From positions 1-5,751 of the IMG/VR virus record IMGVR_UViG_3300045988_012461: 5,751 bases of DNA, one strand, 5' to 3'. Positions 1,388 to 5,751 of the stretch are shown in pieces; positions within the stretch are counted from its first letter, which is position 1, and the number at the start of each line of letters is the position of its first letter. The notes under the pieces are model-generated. The model worked only from the letters and a program-made list of their open reading frames with translations. It made no database searches and was not told the origin of the DNA. The DNA is from a virus. Made by a program: the position numbers and the translations under genes.

Positions 1388-2377
1388 ATGCCATGTACAA
1401 GACCATTAGTATTTCAGATGGATACAAAAAAACCAAAGCTATGGGGAAGTCTGGAGAACCTATCCAAGCAAGGACTGCAAACGGACATCATGGACGGAAT
1501 CAAAAAAGGAAAATTCGCATTGTTACCATGCGGTAAATGCGAATATTGCCGCAAACAGATGGCTGATCAATGGGCAACAAGAATAGAGCTAGAAGCAAAA
1601 GAATGGGACGATGTGATTTTTCTGACACTGACGTATGACGATGAACATATTCCATACGGAGAGATCGTCAAAGGCTACAGAAGCATTCAAAGTCAGACAG
1701 TAAGCAAACGAGACGTACAGCTATTTTTAAAGCGGCTAAGAAAAGCATACAAGAAGCCGATAAAATATTTCCTAGCAGCCGAATATGGCGACAGAACAAA
1801 ACGACCGCACTATCACGCAATAGTGTTCGGACTGAAACCACCGGATGCACAATGGTATAAAAACCAAAAAGGCAACAGCTATTTTAAAAGCGAGTGGCTA
1901 CAAAAAATCTGGGGCAAAGGTATGATTGACTTTTCACCAGCACAGCCGGGAAGTTACGCATATGTTGCACAATACGTCAACAAGAAAGCCATAGGTGCAG
2001 AGCAAACCGCAAAATACTGGATGGAAGGCCGGGAACCTGAATTTAGAATCATGTCAAAAGGCATCGGCGAAAAATATCTGAACGAACACAAAGATGAAAT
2101 CTTGAAAACGGATAGCATCATATGTGCAGGAGGCCGCGAGAAAAGGCCTCCACGCTATTTTGATAAAATCCTAGATAAGGATACCAGCCAAGACACAGAA
2201 AGCTATTTTAAGGCGCATTCTGACGAGCTGAGAGAGGTTAGAGCCAAACGCAGACGCAATGCAATACAAAGTTTAATCAATCTCGAACAGAACACCAGCG
2301 TGGATTATGAAGCCTATCTCAACATTCAAAAAGAAAAAGACAAGCTAAAGCAAAAGTGGCGTGAACCGAAAGAATGA
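1388..2377 (+). CDS. VP4: VP4 replication initiation protein (HUH rolling-circle endonuclease, phiX174 A analogue), 329 aa
   Basis: MPCTRPL... N-terminus typical of microvirus VP4. Also LPCGKCEYCR, motif 1 FLTLTY, HUH motif RPHYHAIVFG and tyrosine motif YVAQYVNKK. TGA at 2375-2377. I prefer ATG 1388 to the ORF-track GTG 1373, which lies inside the hairpin arm. Confidence 0.93.
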   Translation: MPCTRPLVFQMDTKKPKLWGSLENLSKQGLQTDIMDGIKKGKFALLPCGKCEYCRKQMADQWATRIELEAKEWDDVIFLTLTYDDEHIPYGEIVKGYRSIQSQTVSKRDVQLFLKRLRKAYKKPIKYFLAAEYGDRTKRPHYHAIVFGLKPPDAQWYKNQKGNSYFKSEWLQKIWGKGMIDFSPAQPGSYAYVAQYVNKKAIGAEQTAKYWMEGREPEFRIMSKGIGEKYLNEHKDEILKTDSIICAGGREKRPPRYFDKILDKDTSQDTESYFKAHSDELREVRAKRRRNAIQSLINLEQNTSVDYEAYLNIQKEKDKLKQKWREPKE

Positions 2378-2518
2378 CGCGCACAGCGCTAAAAAGGAAT
2401 GGATTTAGCCGAGTTCCGCTTTAGCTCCACACGGCAAGGCGCTAAAGCGCCATCAAAACAAAGGAGCACAGAAAGCACCCGATCGGGAAGAAGTTGCAGC
2501 AGAAATTTAAAAATTTAC

Positions 2519-2547
2519 TTGACTTAAAAAATTAAATATGGTATAAT
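2519..2547 (+). promoter_or_regulatory. Near-consensus sigma70/sigmaA-type promoter with extended -10 and A/T-rich UP-like tract
   Basis: TTGACT (2519-2524), 17-nt spacer, TGg-TATAAT (TG 2539-2540, -10 at 2542-2547). aaatttaaaaattta (2503-2517) lies just upstream. The next ORF starts at 2593. Confidence 0.6.
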
Positions 2548-2592
2548 AAAGGTGGAAAAAGACCACCAAAAACCGAAAGAGAGGTAATCAAA

Positions 2593-2793
2593 ATGGAATA
2601 TAGCAATGAATACTTTAACCGAAACGGGTGGAATGCATCAGTTGACATGTACAGATCGAGGTACTACGCAGAAAAAGCAAAACAAAGTCCGAATGACGTA
2701 ATAATCAAAGGCAAAAAAACAGGCCTGTACAAAATACTAACGAGGAAAGAATACAGAGAATACAAACAAAGACCGTCATGGCAAGAATACTAA
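2593..2793 (+). CDS. Hypothetical 66-aa protein (Tyr/Lys/Arg-rich ORFan, no hydrophobic segment)
   Basis: ATG 2593 preceded by gaggt (2581-2585) at 7-nt spacing; TAA at 2791-2793. First ORF after the strong promoter. I recognise no family. Confidence 0.55.
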   Translation: MEYSNEYFNRNGWNASVDMYRSRYYAEKAKQSPNDVIIKGKKTGLYKILTRKEYREYKQRPSWQEY

Positions 2794-2813
2794 CCATTGA
2801 CAAAAATAAGGAG

Positions 2814-2843
2814 TTGACAAAAAATGATTATAAGCTATATAAT
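2814..2843 (+). promoter_or_regulatory. Second promoter-like element overlapping the peptidase start (weakly supported)
   Basis: TTGACA (2814-2819), 18-nt spacer, TATAAT (2838-2843). ttgacaaaaa also occurs at 2797-2806, so two copies flank the SD AAGGAG (2808-2813). A transcript starting here would lack both in-frame ATGs (2824, 2842) of the peptidase ORF. Confidence 0.3.
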
Positions 2844-3213
2844 GAACACAAACGGAAACGAAAAAATAGGAAAACACTTCACAGTGAAAGAATTTGCGTG
2901 CAAAGATGGCTCACAAGTGGTCTTTATTGACAGCTATTTGGTAGGCGTACTGGATATCCTACGAAATGAGCTAAATAAACCAGTCATAATCACCAGCGGA
3001 TACAGAACACCGGAGTGGAACGCAAAATGTGGAGGAGCAAAATACAGCTACCACATGCGCGGTATGGCAGCAGACATCCGAGTAAATGGAATAAGCCCGA
3101 AAGAACTCGCCAACAAACTGAATGCAATCGTACCGGATGAATGCGGCATTATCGTATACAAAAGTTGGGTACACTTTGATGTGAGAACCAACAAATACAG
3201 AAAGGGGGTGTAA
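2824..3213 (+). CDS. Zinc D,D-/L,D-peptidase of the M15 (Peptidase_M15_3 / VanY-like, LAS) family; putative endolysin, 129 aa
   Basis: SD AAGGAG (2808-2813) lies 10 nt before ATG 2824. Family motifs in order: HFTVKEFACKDG, SGYR (58-61), SYHMRGMAAD (S-x-H-x-x-G-x-A-x-D, i.e. H77-x6-D84) and WVHFD (H117, D119). All metal ligands are present. TAA at 3211-3213. Confidence 0.85.
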   Translation: MIISYIMNTNGNEKIGKHFTVKEFACKDGSQVVFIDSYLVGVLDILRNELNKPVIITSGYRTPEWNAKCGGAKYSYHMRGMAADIRVNGISPKELANKLNAIVPDECGIIVYKSWVHFDVRTNKYRKGV

Positions 3214-3215
3214 AA

Positions 3216-3332
3216 ATGGCACACAGAAGCGGAGCAGGTCAAGGCGATCAGAAACGTTTTACCCAGACTGCAAAGCGGGTAAAAAACATCAACGTAAGAC
3301 CGAAGGTATCACGAGGCGGGATCAGACTGTAA
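3216..3332 (+). CDS. Small basic DNA-binding/packaging protein (phiX174 J / gokushovirus ORF8 analogue), 38 aa
   Basis: Not in the ORF track. ATG 3216 follows gggggtg (3204-3210). Translation: MAHRSGAGQGDQKRFTQTAKRVKNINVRPKVSRGGIRL*. It is highly basic and ends in RGGIRL, a C-terminus I recognise from small microvirus proteins. TAA at 3330-3332. Confidence 0.7.
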   Translation: MAHRSGAGQGDQKRFTQTAKRVKNINVRPKVSRGGIRL

Positions 3333-3398
3333 AAGAAAGGAGGCAATAGACCGAAGGTACCACGAGGCGGGATCAGACTGTAAAAGAAAGGAGGCAAT
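3297..3398 (+). repeat. 51-nt x 2 tandem direct repeat (one mismatch)
   Basis: agaccgaaggta[t/c]cacgaggcgggatcagactgtaaaagaaaggaggcaat at 3297-3347 and 3348-3398. The only difference is t3309 versus c3360. Each copy carries the last 11 codons of the J-like ORF, its TAA stop and a strong SD aaaggagg. Confidence 0.95.
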
Positions 3399-3401
3399 TT
3401 G

Positions 3402-3518
3402 ATGGCACTGATTAAGGTCAAGGACGTTAAAGAAGCAATTGCACTGATGATGGACATCCTTGAAAAGCTCGATGAGATCTACCACGCACTGAAGGACGCA
3501 AGCAAAAACAAAGAGTAA
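3402..3518 (+). CDS. Hypothetical 38-aa helical protein
   Basis: Not in the ORF track. ATG 3402 lies 7 nt after aaaggagg (3387-3394). Translation: MALIKVKDVKEAIALMMDILEKLDEIYHALKDASKNKE*. TAA at 3516-3518 overlaps the SD of the next gene, so it fills the gap between flanking genes exactly. Confidence 0.45.
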   Translation: MALIKVKDVKEAIALMMDILEKLDEIYHALKDASKNKE

Positions 3519-3528
3519 AGGAGAAAAC

Positions 3529-3783
3529 ATGAAACTGAAATTCTATTCATTCCACGATGCACTGACCAACGGCTACTCTCAGCCGTTCCTGCAGAACAAC
3601 AGAGCACAGGCAGTCAGAACGGCACGATGGAAAGCCAACGAAAGCAAGCCGAGTGAAATCGAAGACATCAGCTTAGTTGAACTGGGCGAATTCGACACCG
3701 AAACCGGCTACATGAGCGAGGCAATGCCTGAACACATCGCACGGCTCATCGACCTGAAGGAGACGGCCAATGTTAAATCCTGA
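3529..3783 (+). CDS. VP5-like non-structural protein (conserved gokushovirus small protein, proposed phiX174 C analogue), 84 aa
   Basis: SD aaggag (3518-3523) lies 5 nt before ATG 3529. The pattern F-x-x-x-D...Y-x-x-PF...A-x-R...D-x-x-L-x-x-LGEFD-x-x-TG matches my memory of gokushovirus VP5/ORF5 proteins. Family assignment is from memory only. Confidence 0.6.
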   Translation: MKLKFYSFHDALTNGYSQPFLQNNRAQAVRTARWKANESKPSEIEDISLVELGEFDTETGYMSEAMPEHIARLIDLKETANVKS

Positions 3784-4189
3784 TGTGCTGGTAAGATACT
3801 GCGGCTTACCGACCGAGAGAGTGGCAAACAATCCGGGCAGCAAGACCGCGCCAACGTGGAAAGCGGTCAAGCGGCCAAACGGCACTACCGACTACATCCA
3901 ACAGCCGGATGAAAACACATACGAAAAAATCCAGAAAGCGGGCGAAGGCTACGACCTTGCAAGCGCGATCGCAAGGCTGGAAGCGGGAGACACCAGCATC
4001 AAGGCAAAGAGCATGATATACACCGAGGGGACAGAACTCGAAAATCTGCCGAAGGACATCATGACGATGCACGAAAAAGCAGAAACAGCAGCCGAAACGC
4101 TGGAACAGCTGAAACAGGTGCAGCAGACCGAACAGCCAAAGCCGGAAGAAAAAAAAGAAGAGGTGAAGGAAAACGAACCGAAACAGTGA
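3770..4189 (+). CDS. Putative internal scaffolding protein (VP3-like), 139 aa, with acidic Glu/Lys-rich C-terminus
   Basis: SD aaggag (3757-3762) lies 7 nt before ATG 3770. It overlaps the previous ORF by 14 nt. TGA at 4187-4189 is 25 nt before the VP1 start. The position immediately upstream of VP1 and the size fit gokushovirus VP3. I see no diagnostic motif. Confidence 0.5.
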   Translation: MLNPDVLVRYCGLPTERVANNPGSKTAPTWKAVKRPNGTTDYIQQPDENTYEKIQKAGEGYDLASAIARLEAGDTSIKAKSMIYTEGTELENLPKDIMTMHEKAETAAETLEQLKQVQQTEQPKPEEKKEEVKENEPKQ

Positions 4190-4214: not shown

Positions 4215-5751
4215 ATGGAACGACCGCGAAGCAAATTTGACCGAAGTCACCAACTCTTAACGACCATCAACGAAGGAGATTTGGTACCCATCTACTGTGA
4301 TGAAGTACTGCCGGGCGATACCGCACGTGTACGCCTGAACGGACTTATTCGCATGAGCACACCCATCTATCCTATCATGGATAACTGCTACATGGATACC
4401 TATTTCTTCTTTGTTCCGTGCCGTCTGCTCTGGGAACACTGGGAAAATATGTTCGGCGAGAACGACACCAACTATTGGGCAGAAAAAACCGAATACAGCA
4501 CACCGACTTGCGCAATCGGCGGAACAAGCGGTCTAAACAATGGCAGCATCGGAGACTATTTTGGACTACCGACCGAAATCAAAAACGAAATCAAAGTCAA
4601 CGCACTGCCAGCACGCGCATATGCCATGATTTACAACGAATGGTTTCGAGATGAAAATCTAGAAGCACCACTGATGCTAGGATACAAAAAAAGTGACAAC
4701 GCATCGAACAACAAAGACCCGGAAGCACTGAAAGATAGCGTAAACGATCCCAAAAACACAGCATCAACAGAAGAAAGCTACTTCTATGCACGAAAACCCG
4801 CAAAAGCGGGTAAATTCCACGACTACTTCACGTCCTGTCTGCCTTCGCCGTTGAAATCTAACCCTGTGGAAATCAGCCTGACGGGTAATGCAGCAGTGAA
4901 ACTGTATAAAGACATCGAACTAACCGACAAACAGGCTCCAGCAGACACAATCAAACTGTACAATAACGGAGAAATTTACAATACGAATGAAACCACCGGA
5001 AAAAGACCGGCAATAGTGTCGAGCACCACAATCAATGAAACTAAAACGGCATATCTCGGAACAGACCTGAGCGATATAAACGCAATCAGCATTGCAGATT
5101 TGCGCATGGCAATTGCACTGCAGCACATTTTCGAGGCTGATGCAAGAAATGGAACAAGGTACAGGGAGTTCCTAAGCGGGACTTGGGGCGTAACGTCACC
5201 GGACAGCCGTCTACAGATTCCTGAGTACATCGGCGGTCAGCGCATCGCCATCAATGTCAATCAGGTAGTTCAGACGAGCCAAACGGACACGACAACCGGG
5301 CAGGCACTGGGCAATACGGCAGCATACAGTCTGACCACATGCAGCAAGCAGATGGTAGACTATGCAGCAACCGAGTACGGCTTTATTATCGGTCTGGCAG
5401 TAATACGAGTAGAGCACAGTTACCAACAGGGACTTGCGACCAAGTGGACACGTGGCGGACGGTTCACCTACTACGACCCGCGGCTAGCAGCACTGGGAGA
5501 ACAGCCAGTATACAACCGTGAAATCTATGCACAGGGTACAGCTGAAGATAACGAAATTTTTGGTTATCAGGAGGCTTGGGCGGATTACCGCTACAAGCCT
5601 TCTTACGTAACCGGAGAAATGCGGTCTAACTTCAAGACGTCACTGGATGCATGGCACTATGCAGACGACTATGATAAACTGCCGCGTCTCTCGGCAGAGT
5701 GGATCCAAGAAGGAACACAGAACATTGACAGAACGATTGCAGTGACAAGCA
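4215..5751 (+). CDS. VP1: Major capsid protein VP1, N-terminal 494 codons (to 5696) plus 55-nt overlap; full gene is join(4215..5696,1..150), 543 aa
   Basis: Not in the ORF track (no in-window stop). N-terminus MERPRSKFDRSHQLLTTINEGDLVPIYCDEVLPGDT. Further hallmarks: YFFFVPCRLLWEHWENMFGEN, HDYFTSCLPSP, IADLRMAIALQHIFEADARNGTRYREFLSGTWGV, SRLQIPEYIGG and FGYQEAWADYRYKPSYVTGEM. All are microvirus VP1/F hallmarks. Open frame to the window end. Confidence 0.93.
   Translation, partial: MERPRSKFDRSHQLLTTINEGDLVPIYCDEVLPGDTARVRLNGLIRMSTPIYPIMDNCYMDTYFFFVPCRLLWEHWENMFGENDTNYWAEKTEYSTPTCAIGGTSGLNNGSIGDYFGLPTEIKNEIKVNALPARAYAMIYNEWFRDENLEAPLMLGYKKSDNASNNKDPEALKDSVNDPKNTASTEESYFYARKPAKAGKFHDYFTSCLPSPLKSNPVEISLTGNAAVKLYKDIELTDKQAPADTIKLYNNGEIYNTNETTGKRPAIVSSTTINETKTAYLGTDLSDINAISIADLRMAIALQHIFEADARNGTRYREFLSGTWGVTSPDSRLQIPEYIGGQRIAINVNQVVQTSQTDTTTGQALGNTAAYSLTTCSKQMVDYAATEYGFIIGLAVIRVEHSYQQGLATKWTRGGRFTYYDPRLAALGEQPVYNREIYAQGTAEDNEIFGYQEAWADYRYKPSYVTGEMRSNFKTSLDAWHYADDYDKLPRLSAEWIQEGTQNIDRTIAVTS
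5697..5751. repeat. 55-nt exact terminal direct repeat (copy 2), the overlap of a circular contig
   Basis: Identical to 1-55. Confidence 0.95.

Follow-up and report, generated by a model that had tools for sequence, protein, structure and literature searches.

The window, that is, the whole 5,751 nt stretch of viral DNA that was analyzed, carries a 55-nt direct repeat at its ends (1-55 = 5697-5751), which closes it into a circle of 5,696 nt, and it represents a complete gokushovirus genome. The core genes VP1, VP2 and VP4 are present together with VP3 and VP5, the circle lies within the 4.5-6.5 kb of the Gokushovirinae, and there is a single coding strand. Pfam matches in the window were to Rep (PF23343), ORF5 (PF20577) and, weakly, the scaffold protein (PF09675), and a pilot protein was matched in PHROG. 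The closest GenBank genome is that of Human gut gokushovirus KX513876, with 87% nt identity across 90% of the window. The features discussed below are, in order of position:

161-180, + strand: terminator-like hairpin just 3' of the VP1 stop codon, the only such hairpin on the + strand
189-1049: VP2, from the Pfam/PHROG profile search
1373-2377: VP4, from the Pfam/PHROG profile search
2377-2470, + strand: conserved non-coding block directly 3' of the VP4 stop codon, with a hairpin (GGCGCT-AA-AGCGCC); left edge of a variable slot
2519-2547, + strand: sigma-70-like promoter, TTGACT-17-TGgTATAAT, with an extended -10 and a motif match of 11/12
2551-2567, + strand: short GC stem-loop (GGTGG-N7-CCACC) where the transcript is predicted to begin, read from the sequence and also found in the stem scan
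2593-2793, + strand: ORFan of 66 aa, basic and aromatic-rich (pI 9.6), with GAGG 8 nt ahead of its ATG
2808-2813, + strand: Shine-Dalgarno sequence AAGGAG, 10 nt ahead of the ATG at 2824, read from the sequence
2814-2843, + strand: second promoter-like site, TTGACA-18-TATAAT (12/12), overlapping the peptidase start
2824-3213, + strand: predicted M15A zinc peptidase of 129 aa (14.5 kDa, pI 9.3), a single domain with a full-length PF08291 match
3216-3332, + strand: J/VP8-like DNA-binding protein of 38 aa, pI 12 (phrog_10695, E=2.9e-6)
3402-3518, + strand: orf38, a small, acidic, helical protein (MALIKVKDVKEAIALMM.ILEKLDEIYHALKD), conserved and with a strong Shine-Dalgarno sequence
3529-3783: VP5
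3770-4189: VP3
4206 to 150: VP1, spanning the circle junction

Sequence comparison supports the reading of ORF 2824-3213 as an intact M15A enzyme (LAS/Hedgehog-DD-peptidase fold) of a microvirus. The original prediction had described a 129-aa ORF with a strong Shine-Dalgarno sequence and the full M15 signature, all of which are present, and the profile search it proposed returned Peptidase_M15_3 (PF08291) over the whole profile (positions 1-108 of 108; 82.3 bits with a cut-off of 23.2, E=3.3e-23), along with a weaker match to PF05951. PHROG 894 ('endolysin') was matched at E=4.5e-43, a sequence search of the PDB recovered 1LBU alone, and the VanX/VanY families gave no match in the Pfam search. 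The protein contains the motifs FTVKEFAC and SGYR (residues 58-61), a first zinc motif, S75-Y-H77-M-R-G80-M-A82-A-D84, that aligns with SRHMYGHAAD of 1LBU, and a second, W115-V-H117-F-D119, corresponding to (W/F)-x-H and a nearby acidic residue. R61, H77, D84, W115, H117 and D119 show no variation in 41 database homologues or in 53 complete genomes, and Y112 is likewise conserved; from the motifs we infer that H77, D84 and H117 are the zinc ligands. Neither a wall-binding domain nor a signal peptide or transmembrane (TM) segment was found in the protein. The JGI gene call (P0001) starts at Met7 (ATG 2842), but this start was rejected and the upstream Met (ATG 2824) preferred, since the Shine-Dalgarno sequence serves ATG 2824, residue 7 may be I, L, V or M among relatives, and Y5 is invariant.

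Phage M15A endolysins that have been assayed include the peptidase M15A of Burkholderia phage ST79, LysPM1 of Proteus phage Homer and Spp64 of Shewanella phage Spp001. Like the predicted enzyme of the window, they consist of a single PF08291 domain (~116-150 aa) with S-x-H-x-x-G-x-A-x-D and (W/F)-x-H motifs, and share the same conserved Arg and an Asp two residues past the last His. Every residue called catalytic in the assayed enzymes (H77, D84, H119 and the WxH of ST79; R47, H63, D70, F102-x-H104 and D106 of LysPM1) occurs in the window's protein and is invariant among its relatives. Their phages, however, are tailed dsDNA phages with holin genes, ST79 also encoding LysB/LysC, whereas the window encodes a predicted enzyme and no membrane protein.

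An AlphaFold2 model of the peptidase reached a pLDDT of 70 and a pTM of 0.69, with residues 73-78, beside H77, falling below 50; a single-sequence model was poor (pLDDT 63). Foldseek found nothing in the PDB at E<=0.001, the best matches there being Hedgehog N-terminal domains (probability 0.99, TM ~0.5, E=1.6e-2) and 1LBU (E=7.5e-2), while M15A peptidases in BFVD matched the model at E=3e-10. The model, of moderate confidence, is compatible with a Hedgehog/DD-peptidase fold.

The surroundings of the gene were compared across 53 circular peptidase-bearing genomes, including the window. At the left edge, block 2377-2470 retains 85-91% nt identity even among genomes with unalignable core genes; its reading frame is disrupted by an indel between relatives, and the homology of the window to KX513876 and MT121961 ends at 2468. 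Between this edge and the peptidase lies one of at least 11 small ORFs that have no relation to each other, or no ORF at all, and this peptidase-adjacent slot appears to be a hotspot of unrelated small genes. In the window the slot holds the 66-aa ORFan which, as the original prediction had it, lies beside the peptidase; it has no match in Pfam or PHROG. It has no TM segment and is hydrophilic (GRAVY -1.45), on which ground a holin function was rejected. A search of 5.8 billion proteins found one homologue cluster (P0121; 94% identity), encoded in the same slot on a different backbone, and the codon differences, 13 synonymous against 4 non-synonymous, indicate a real gene under purifying selection. 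The family is rare, occurring in two of the 53 genomes, and with so many unrelated occupants of the slot the idea that ORFan and peptidase form a fixed module could not be upheld, nor could the ORFan be a constant partner of the enzyme. It is best seen as interchangeable cargo and not needed for the peptidase.

On the other side, the expected position between VP4 and the J/VP5/VP3 cluster was borne out, except that orf38 intervenes between the J-like gene and VP5. This gene is found in all 53 peptidase-bearing genomes and in four peptidase-less relatives; it is a backbone gene, not a peptidase-specific one, and was for that reason rejected as a lysis factor tied to the peptidase. The four relatives examined are of the same general architecture and have similar VP1 and VP2, and their existence indicates that the peptidase is dispensable for this type of virus. 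In them VP4 and orf38 are separated by ~800-1,000 nt of small ORFs and non-coding DNA, contrary to the expectation that VP4 and J/VP5 are normally adjacent in this group. A 51-nt tandem duplication occurs near the peptidase region, at 3297-3398. An Rfam scan gave a single match, which was sub-threshold and located outside the region.

The near-consensus promoter that had been noted ahead of these genes was recovered at 2519-2547. It is the only site with no more than one mismatch (chance expectation 0.03; 6 of 200 shuffles reach one). It is a putative promoter, read from the sigma-70 motif, and the sigma-factor specificity of the host may be different. Sites matching at least 10/12 sit 20-330 nt 5' of the peptidase ATG in 44 of the 53 genomes, and their density in this upstream zone is 3.1 per kb, against 0.017 per kb on the rest of the + strand. 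The original prediction took the promoter as belonging to the accessory genes. As the sole strong sigma-70-like site, at the head of the structural genes, it is not dedicated to them, and a similarly placed promoter-like site is present in two of the four peptidase-less relatives. Site 2519-2547 is likely to be the main promoter of an operon comprising the ORFan, peptidase, J-like gene, orf38, VP5, VP3 and VP1. The stem-loop at 2551-2567 would not act as a + strand terminator, since no T-run follows it on that strand. The ATG of the J-like gene lies 2 nt beyond the peptidase stop codon with no + strand terminator between the two, so that a separate transcription unit for the J-like gene is not evident, and the hairpin at 161-180 probably terminates the operon beginning at 2519. 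A promoter-like site across the peptidase start, as at 2814-2843, recurs in 28 of the 53 genomes. Since it spans the start, a transcript from this putative promoter would lack the peptidase AUG, and its conservation may come in part from coding constraint on the Y-I-M codons.

The feature itself is already known. M15_3 peptidases were described in human-gut Gokushovirinae and Alpavirinae by Roux, Krupovic et al. (PLoS One 2012; PMC3394797), who also remarked on unknown ORFs beside the gene and suggested that the enzymes act as endolysins. Family, virus subfamily, post-VP4 position, adjoining unknown ORF and Clostridia-leaning homologues all match the window, and nothing essential differs. GenBank annotations include 'peptidase M15' in KX513876 and 'similar to peptidase' in pig-faeces Microviridae (MG945xxx). 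Relatives of the peptidase are encoded on at least 556 IMG/VR contigs, far from the sporadic occurrence mentioned in the original prediction. A protein search returned 1,316 clusters at E<=1e-5, and in the best 120 of these every recorded longest contig is no more than 6,508 nt. The M15 peptidase has been the obvious lysis candidate of gokushoviruses since 2012, and the window adds a further member to a very large set. Gokushoviruses rank with the most abundant phages in the mammalian gut.

The peptidase of the window is 71% identical to the KX513876 copy and closer, with up to 87% identity, to copies on another backbone. Peptidases on backbones with only 38-44% VP1 identity are still 71-87% identical to it, peptidase identity between genomes of the two clades reaches 97.7%, and for 10 of the 53 peptidases the closest other copy lies on the opposite backbone. 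In one pair (the window and L006), region 2377-3216 shares 83% nt identity, yet the VP1 proteins are 41% identical. Recombination of a peptidase cassette between distant microvirus families was reported by Kirchberger, Martinez and Ochman (mBio 2022; PMC9239249), who described a ~700-nt island with the peptidase at high nt identity in genomes that are otherwise unalignable; in the present case exchange is between two clades inside the Gokushovirinae, and appears frequent.

The same comparisons bear on whether segment 2519-3213 could be chimeric, or the peptidase a decaying passenger gene. The near lack of relatives of the ORFan would fit such a reading, and the tandem duplication could hint at assembly trouble. 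On the other hand the contig closes into a circle, and the order VP4, slot, peptidase, J/orf38 recurs in all 52 remaining circular genomes, which were assembled independently and come from many samples. An ENA contig from a different sample contains 2377-3216 as one continuous block (83% nt identity). The peptidase ORF is intact with invariant catalytic residues, and the ORFan is under purifying selection. A mis-join is very unlikely, and the artefact or passenger reading as a whole is effectively refuted.

We consider it rather probable, at about three chances in four, that the region is a variable cargo slot heading the main transcription unit of the virus, and that it carries an endolysin-like M15A peptidase that contributes to lysis. 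In outline, the slot of this human or animal gut gokushovirus would have acquired an M15A zinc peptidase horizontally, and this enzyme, which is homologous to small tailed-phage endolysins with a single domain, would later have been passed among microviruses. Transcription from 2519-2547 would give one polycistronic mRNA for the ORFan, peptidase, J-like protein, orf38, VP5, VP3 and VP1, so that the peptidase would be made alongside the structural proteins, a step suggested by the motifs, the gene spacing and the single terminator. With zinc bound by H77, D84 and H117, the enzyme would cut peptide bonds of the peptidoglycan stem or cross-link, as its homology to ST79, LysPM1 and Spp64 suggests, and late in infection it would weaken the sacculus and aid the release of progeny. 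We infer this lytic role from sequence and from the context of homologues: a 46%-identical homologue in Faecalibacterium phage FP_oengus is annotated as endolysin and has a holin two genes downstream, and homologues in bacterial prophages are likewise found in an endolysin context with a holin (Roux 2012, PMC3394797). A literature search found no enzymatic or genetic test of a gokushovirus M15 protein.

Among the features that characterize a canonical endolysin, a phage-encoded muralytic enzyme is predicted by homology, and late expression would follow from the putative co-transcription with the structural genes, but a partner holin or pinholin, or a Sec/SAR export signal, was not found. In agreement with the original prediction, no signal peptide, SAR or TM segment is encoded on the + strand of the window, where no frame reachable from a start codon had a 19-residue Kyte-Doolittle mean of 1.5 or more, and the N-terminus of the peptidase (MIISYIMNTNGNEK) is without a hydrophobic core. 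Across the 53 genomes, no conserved holin-like + strand ORF was found at a 17-residue Kyte-Doolittle mean of at least 1.6; the five rows above this value were the buried core of one peptidase (L084, twice) and sporadic, non-conserved ORFs in L007, L069 and L004. At a threshold of 1.4, applied to the window and six relatives, the VP2 N-terminus was also among the matches. A hydrophobic minus-strand ORF at 2705-2803 was set aside as a composition effect, since the minus strand is T-rich (+ strand AT skew +0.38) and yields dozens of such ORFs from composition alone; its retention in L006 is uninformative, the DNA there being 91% identical. Microviridae transcribe one strand only. A cytoplasmic endolysin that lacks a holin, an export signal and a SAR anchor has no way to the wall; access must rely on something else, and the lysis model is, to that extent, incomplete.

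This gap could be closed if the enzyme acted from the cytoplasm as a single-gene lysis protein, cleaving soluble or lipid-linked peptidoglycan precursors (D-Ala-D-Ala, UDP-MurNAc-pentapeptide, or lipid II at the inner face). Starved or poisoned cross-linking would then cause growing cells to lyse holin-free, an outcome analogous to that of phiX174 E, Qbeta A2 and phage M Lys. Small phages characteristically lyse through attack on wall synthesis, and the consistent lack of holin, signal or SAR sequences across the 53 genomes would fit, as would the activity of 1LBU, the type enzyme of M15A, which is a D-Ala-D-Ala (muramoyl-pentapeptide) carboxypeptidase. VanX and VanY, also M15 family members, act on precursors, but the window's peptidase has no Pfam match to their families. 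Moreover, the assayed ST79 and LysPM1 enzymes degrade mature peptidoglycan as classical endolysins beside holins, and the FP_oengus homologue is located near one. The likeness to phiX174 E and other single-gene lysis proteins lies in minimal coding capacity and the lack of a holin-endolysin-spanin set. Protein E, a TM protein read from an overlapping frame, inhibits MraY; in the window there is no TM-containing overlapping ORF, and the candidate is a hydrolase, not an inhibitor. A holin-independent lysis protein, working through cytoplasmic precursors or by a wall route undescribed for endolysins, is regarded as improbable, at odds of roughly one to seven. If true, it would explain how an endolysin-like gene is kept in hundreds of gokushoviruses with no membrane-protein partner in 53 genomes. 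What the context adds to the lysis reading is this lack of a conserved holin-like partner and the place of the peptidase as first gene of the main operon, downstream of its single strong promoter and next to a hotspot of unrelated small genes, which narrows the question to whether the peptidase can lyse cells alone from the cytoplasm.

A muralytic-type accessory gene of a microvirus has been studied in Ebor, a Tainavirinae phage of Rhodobacter capsulatus, whose Gp7 is a zymogram-active peptidoglycan hydrolase and, according to its authors, the first experimentally verified one of an ssDNA phage (mBio 2025; PMC11980548). Gp7 differs from the window's peptidase, which is known by homology, in fold, its best structural match being HHpred 6SSC_A and not M15A, and in virus subfamily and host, and Ebor encodes a 45-aa predicted membrane protein (Gp1) that has no counterpart in the window's genome. 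Trace amounts of Gp7 were detected in purified virions by LC-MS/MS (PMC11980548), which raises the idea of an entry enzyme, with a few virion-borne copies opening the peptidoglycan locally to allow ssDNA delivery through the VP2 pilot conduit. Peptidoglycan hydrolases associated with the virion are a common feature of other phages, and a small, basic protein such as the peptidase would suit this use. However, no capsid-binding or scaffold-like region can be recognized in it, there is little room to spare inside a T=1 capsid, relatives with similar VP1 and VP2 do without the gene, and in the closest tailed-phage contexts the homologues appear as endolysins, not as tail or virion proteins. An entry role seems more doubtful still than lysis from the cytoplasm.

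As to the source of the gene, its nearest cellular homologues are 41-54% identical and scattered across Clostridia, Bacteroidota, Atribacterota and Proteobacteria. There is no support for a recent capture from a bacterium, as no copy exceeds 54% identity in a set of 185,579 representative genomes of bacteria and archaea. Among tailed phages, homologues of similar identity occur both in Faecalibacterium and in Vibrio phages, and point to no particular host. The top match in the bacterial and archaeal genome set is a 4.9-kb contig that is itself probably a microvirus.

The ends of the window form a perfect 55-nt direct repeat (1-55 = 5697-5751), so the genome closes into a circle of 5,696 nt. 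Its closest match in GenBank, Human gut gokushovirus KX513876, has 86.8% nt identity with 90% of the window covered. Every recognisable gene lies on the + strand:

189-1049, +, VP2 pilot protein
1373-2377, +, VP4 replication initiator (PF23343)
2593-2793, +, ORFan, 66 aa
2824-3213, +, peptidase, 129 aa (PF08291)
3216-3332, +, J/VP8-like protein, 38 aa, pI 12
3402-3518, +, orf38, conserved, 38 aa
3529-3783, +, VP5 (PF20577)
3770-4189, +, VP3
4206 across the junction to 150, +, VP1

The 129-aa ORF contains every M15 motif listed in the original prediction, and the Pfam search proposed there matched it end to end to PF08291 (Peptidase_M15_3; E=3.3e-23, 82 bits, cut-off 23). It also matched PHROG 894, 'endolysin' (E=4.5e-43). 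Residues R61, H77, D84, W115, H117 and D119 have the same spacing as in the assayed M15A endolysins ST79 (which uses H77, D84 and H119 plus a WxH motif) and LysPM1 (H63, D70 and H104, with R47, F102 and D106 nearby), and are invariant across 41 database homologues and 53 complete peptidase-bearing genomes. A sequence search of the PDB returned a sole match, the M15A type enzyme 1LBU, aligned over S-x-H-x-x-G-x-A-x-D. An AlphaFold2 model built from 41 homologues was of moderate quality (pLDDT 70, pTM 0.69); its top PDB structure matches, Hedgehog N-terminal domains and 1LBU, point to a Hedgehog/DD-peptidase (LAS) fold at weak E-values (1.6e-2 and worse). Against predicted viral structures the model matched M15A peptidases at E=3e-10, several named microviruses among them.

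M15 peptidases of gokushoviruses are already known, having been published more than ten years ago and widely annotated. Roux, Krupovic et al. 2012 (PMC3394797) described M15_3 peptidase genes in five gokushoviruses and six alpaviruses from human samples, showed that microvirus peptidases were acquired horizontally, found an unknown ORF adjoining the peptidase in 5 of 11, speculated on Firmicute hosts and, with prophage homologues lying beside holins, proposed an endolysin role. In GenBank the gene is labelled 'peptidase M15' in KX513876 and 'similar to peptidase' in many pig-faeces records. Horizontally acquired bacterial peptidases in gokushoviruses were also mentioned by Kirchberger & Ochman 2020, M15 peptidases are present in Occultatumvirinae isolates, and Kirchberger et al. 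2022 (PMC9239249) listed peptidases among lysis-associated accessory genes. The original prediction of a lysis enzyme is reasonable, but it is not new, since Roux 2012 had proposed this role. The papers searched contained no functional assay of an M15 enzyme from a gokushovirus. The microvirus protein Ebor Gp7 (PMC11980548, 2025), which is zymogram-active and claimed by its authors as the first verified for an ssDNA phage, is a different peptidoglycan hydrolase.

The comparison set of 53 circularised genomes (the window, four circular GenBank records and others) comprises two backbones. The 18 genomes of clade A, including the window, have VP1 78-83% and VP4 93-97% identical to those of the window, and the 35 of clade B only 38-44% and 35-39%. 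The peptidases of both clades alike are 71-87% identical to the window's copy, and the closest (87%) is carried on a clade B backbone, that of L007 (L-numbers denote related viral genomes or contigs). Mean peptidase identity is 80.7% within clade A, 78.0% within clade B and 76.9% between them, with a between-clade maximum of 97.7%, and in 10 of the 53 genomes the nearest-neighbour peptidase lies on the opposite backbone. Nucleotide similarity between the window and clade B is confined to islands at 112-193, 1129-1332 and 2377-2470 and over the peptidase and orf38 genes. This is the same phenomenon, inside Gokushovirinae, as the ~700-nt peptidase island common to microviruses with 21% identical VP1 (Kirchberger et al. 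2022, PMC9239249). No close cellular source was found among 185,579 representative genomes: the top match, 54% identical, comes from a contig of 4.9 kb, followed at 41-47% by Clostridia MAGs and Capnocytophaga.

That the segment is an artefact is extremely improbable. Against it stand relatives of the peptidase on at least 556 viral contigs in an IMG/VR scan, the gene order VP4 - variable slot - peptidase - J/orf38 - VP1 - VP2 in 53/53 circular genomes, and the unbroken block 2377-3216 (83% nt identity) in L006, an ENA contig from a separate sample. The best 80 of the IMG/VR relatives are 71-87% identical to the window's copy and nearly all on 4.2-6.3 kb contigs. In a 5.8-billion-protein collection, 1,316 clusters matched at E<=1e-5, and among the best 120 no recorded longest contig exceeded 6,508 nt. 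Detection of VP5 and VP3 ahead of VP1 was restricted to clade A (18 genomes).

The slot between VP4 and the peptidase is hypervariable: its length ranges from 152 to 1,057 nt (53 genomes), and at least 11 unrelated ORF families occupy the position immediately 5' of the peptidase. The largest of them is found in 15 genomes (KX513876 included), and many genomes have no ORF there. Homologues of the 66-aa ORFan form one cluster worldwide (P0121, 94% identity), located in the equivalent slot of a clade B genome. Because the two copies differ by 13 synonymous and 4 non-synonymous codon changes, the latter all within residues 2-11, the ORFan is a real gene under purifying selection; its protein is basic, rich in aromatics and without a TM segment. 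The left edge of the slot is a non-coding block (2377-2470) that is 85-91% identical over both backbone clades, a candidate recombination boundary or origin/terminator structure. It lies directly 3' of the VP4 stop, contains a perfect hairpin (GGCGCT-AA-AGCGCC) plus GCGCACAGCGC, and is crossed by spurious ORFs ('RQGAKAP') in several frames. Antisense to the ORFan's 3' end lies a very hydrophobic 32-aa ORF (2705-2803, minus strand, TTG start), retained in L006, which is most likely a composition effect since the T-rich minus strand gives dozens of similar ORFs. One complementary-strand ORF beside a microvirus peptidase was reported by Roux 2012.

Within the slot, the near-consensus promoter noted in the original prediction is a real site (2519-2547, TTGACT-17-TATAAT with TG) and improbable by chance (0.03 expected), but it does not seem private to the accessory module. 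In a + strand scan of the 53 genomes for sites scoring >=10/12, 51 sites in 44 genomes fell 20-330 nt ahead of the peptidase ATG (3.1 per kb), another 28 lay right at the peptidase start codon, and all other positions held only 5 (0.017 per kb). Comparable TG-extended sites precede other small ORFs in two of four peptidase-less relatives (L088 at 1412, L090 at 1565), and all four have a weaker TTTACA-17-TATACT site ~100 nt before orf38. Given this distribution, the 2-nt gap between the peptidase stop and the J-like ATG, and a sole + strand terminator-like hairpin (161-180, after VP1), we read 2519-2547 as the putative main promoter driving the structural operon; the cargo slot follows immediately downstream. 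A second perfect site (12/12, sigma-70-like) at 2814-2843 straddles the peptidase start, its -35 hexamer between SD and ATG and its -10 hexamer over codons 5-7. The same arrangement occurs in 28/53 genomes, and coding constraint could explain part of this sharing. If active, it would give transcripts of the downstream structural genes without the peptidase AUG, so that peptidase translation would be skipped.

We favour, at a probability of about three in four, an endolysin-type M15A zinc peptidase that would be co-expressed with the structural proteins from the putative main promoter at 2519-2547 and, late in infection, would act by weakening the sacculus. The profile match to the family, the intact and conserved catalytic residues, the place of the gene and the lack of a holin or export signal are shown; its activity, timing, role in lysis and, above all, passage across the membrane are what we infer. 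As originally noted, the window encodes no holin or export signal: no TM-like stretch was reachable in any + strand frame, and no holin-like ORF was conserved in the 53 genomes (17-residue hydrophobicity >=1.6). Five rows reached 1.6, namely the buried core of the L084 peptidase (twice) and sporadic ORFs in L007, L069 and L004; when the threshold was lowered to 1.4 (window plus six relatives), the matches also included the VP2 N-terminus. In contrast, the tailed Faecalibacterium phage FP_oengus, with a homologue 46% identical to the window's peptidase, has a holin two genes downstream. The 53-genome negative sharpens the question of holin-free export raised at the outset. Of the rival readings, enzymatic single-gene lysis by cytoplasmic attack on peptidoglycan precursors is unlikely, and a virion-borne entry enzyme is somewhat less likely again.

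The backbone gene orf38 is shared by all 53 genomes and by four peptidase-less relatives (5.2-5.4 kb). It encodes a small, acidic, helical protein (MALIKVKDVKEAIALMMDILEKLDEIYHALKDASKNKE) behind a strong SD, mostly without annotation in GenBank records; the ORF listing gives TTG 3399, and the conserved start is ATG 3402. The peptidase-less relatives (L087-L090: KT264799, MG945157, MG945423, MG945136; VP1 about 47% identical) carry in the equivalent slot, ~200 nt before orf38, a conserved hydrophilic protein of 68-75 aa (..YYQLYRGYRGPETEDEYEYIIRKLYRQLKKAYTVEEAK..), labelled 'VP5' in KT264799, and two of them also a Cys-rich ORF of 61-74 aa.

Between VP2 and VP4 is an AT-rich element of ~200 nt (1129-1332) with TTTTCAACA-type repeats, 72-84% nt identical in gokushoviruses with unalignable core genes. 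Its orientation varies, and so does its position, which is before VP4 in the window but after VP4 in L003-L006, L089 and L090. Because the small ORFs across it (e.g., 1184-1360) switch strand with it, it probably works at the DNA level, for example as an origin or as a regulatory or recombination site. A sub-threshold Rfam match to PrrB/RsmZ over the VP2 3' end (975-1085; 22.4 bits, gathering score 44, E=0.043) is probably chance. The final 36 nt of the J-like gene and the orf38 Shine-Dalgarno are copied in a tandem duplication of 51 nt (3297-3347 and 3348-3398, 1 mismatch). It is seemingly unique to the window, since the J-to-orf38 spacing is 183 nt here against 142-160 nt across the remaining 17 genomes of clade A; a recent event or a slip in assembly might explain it.
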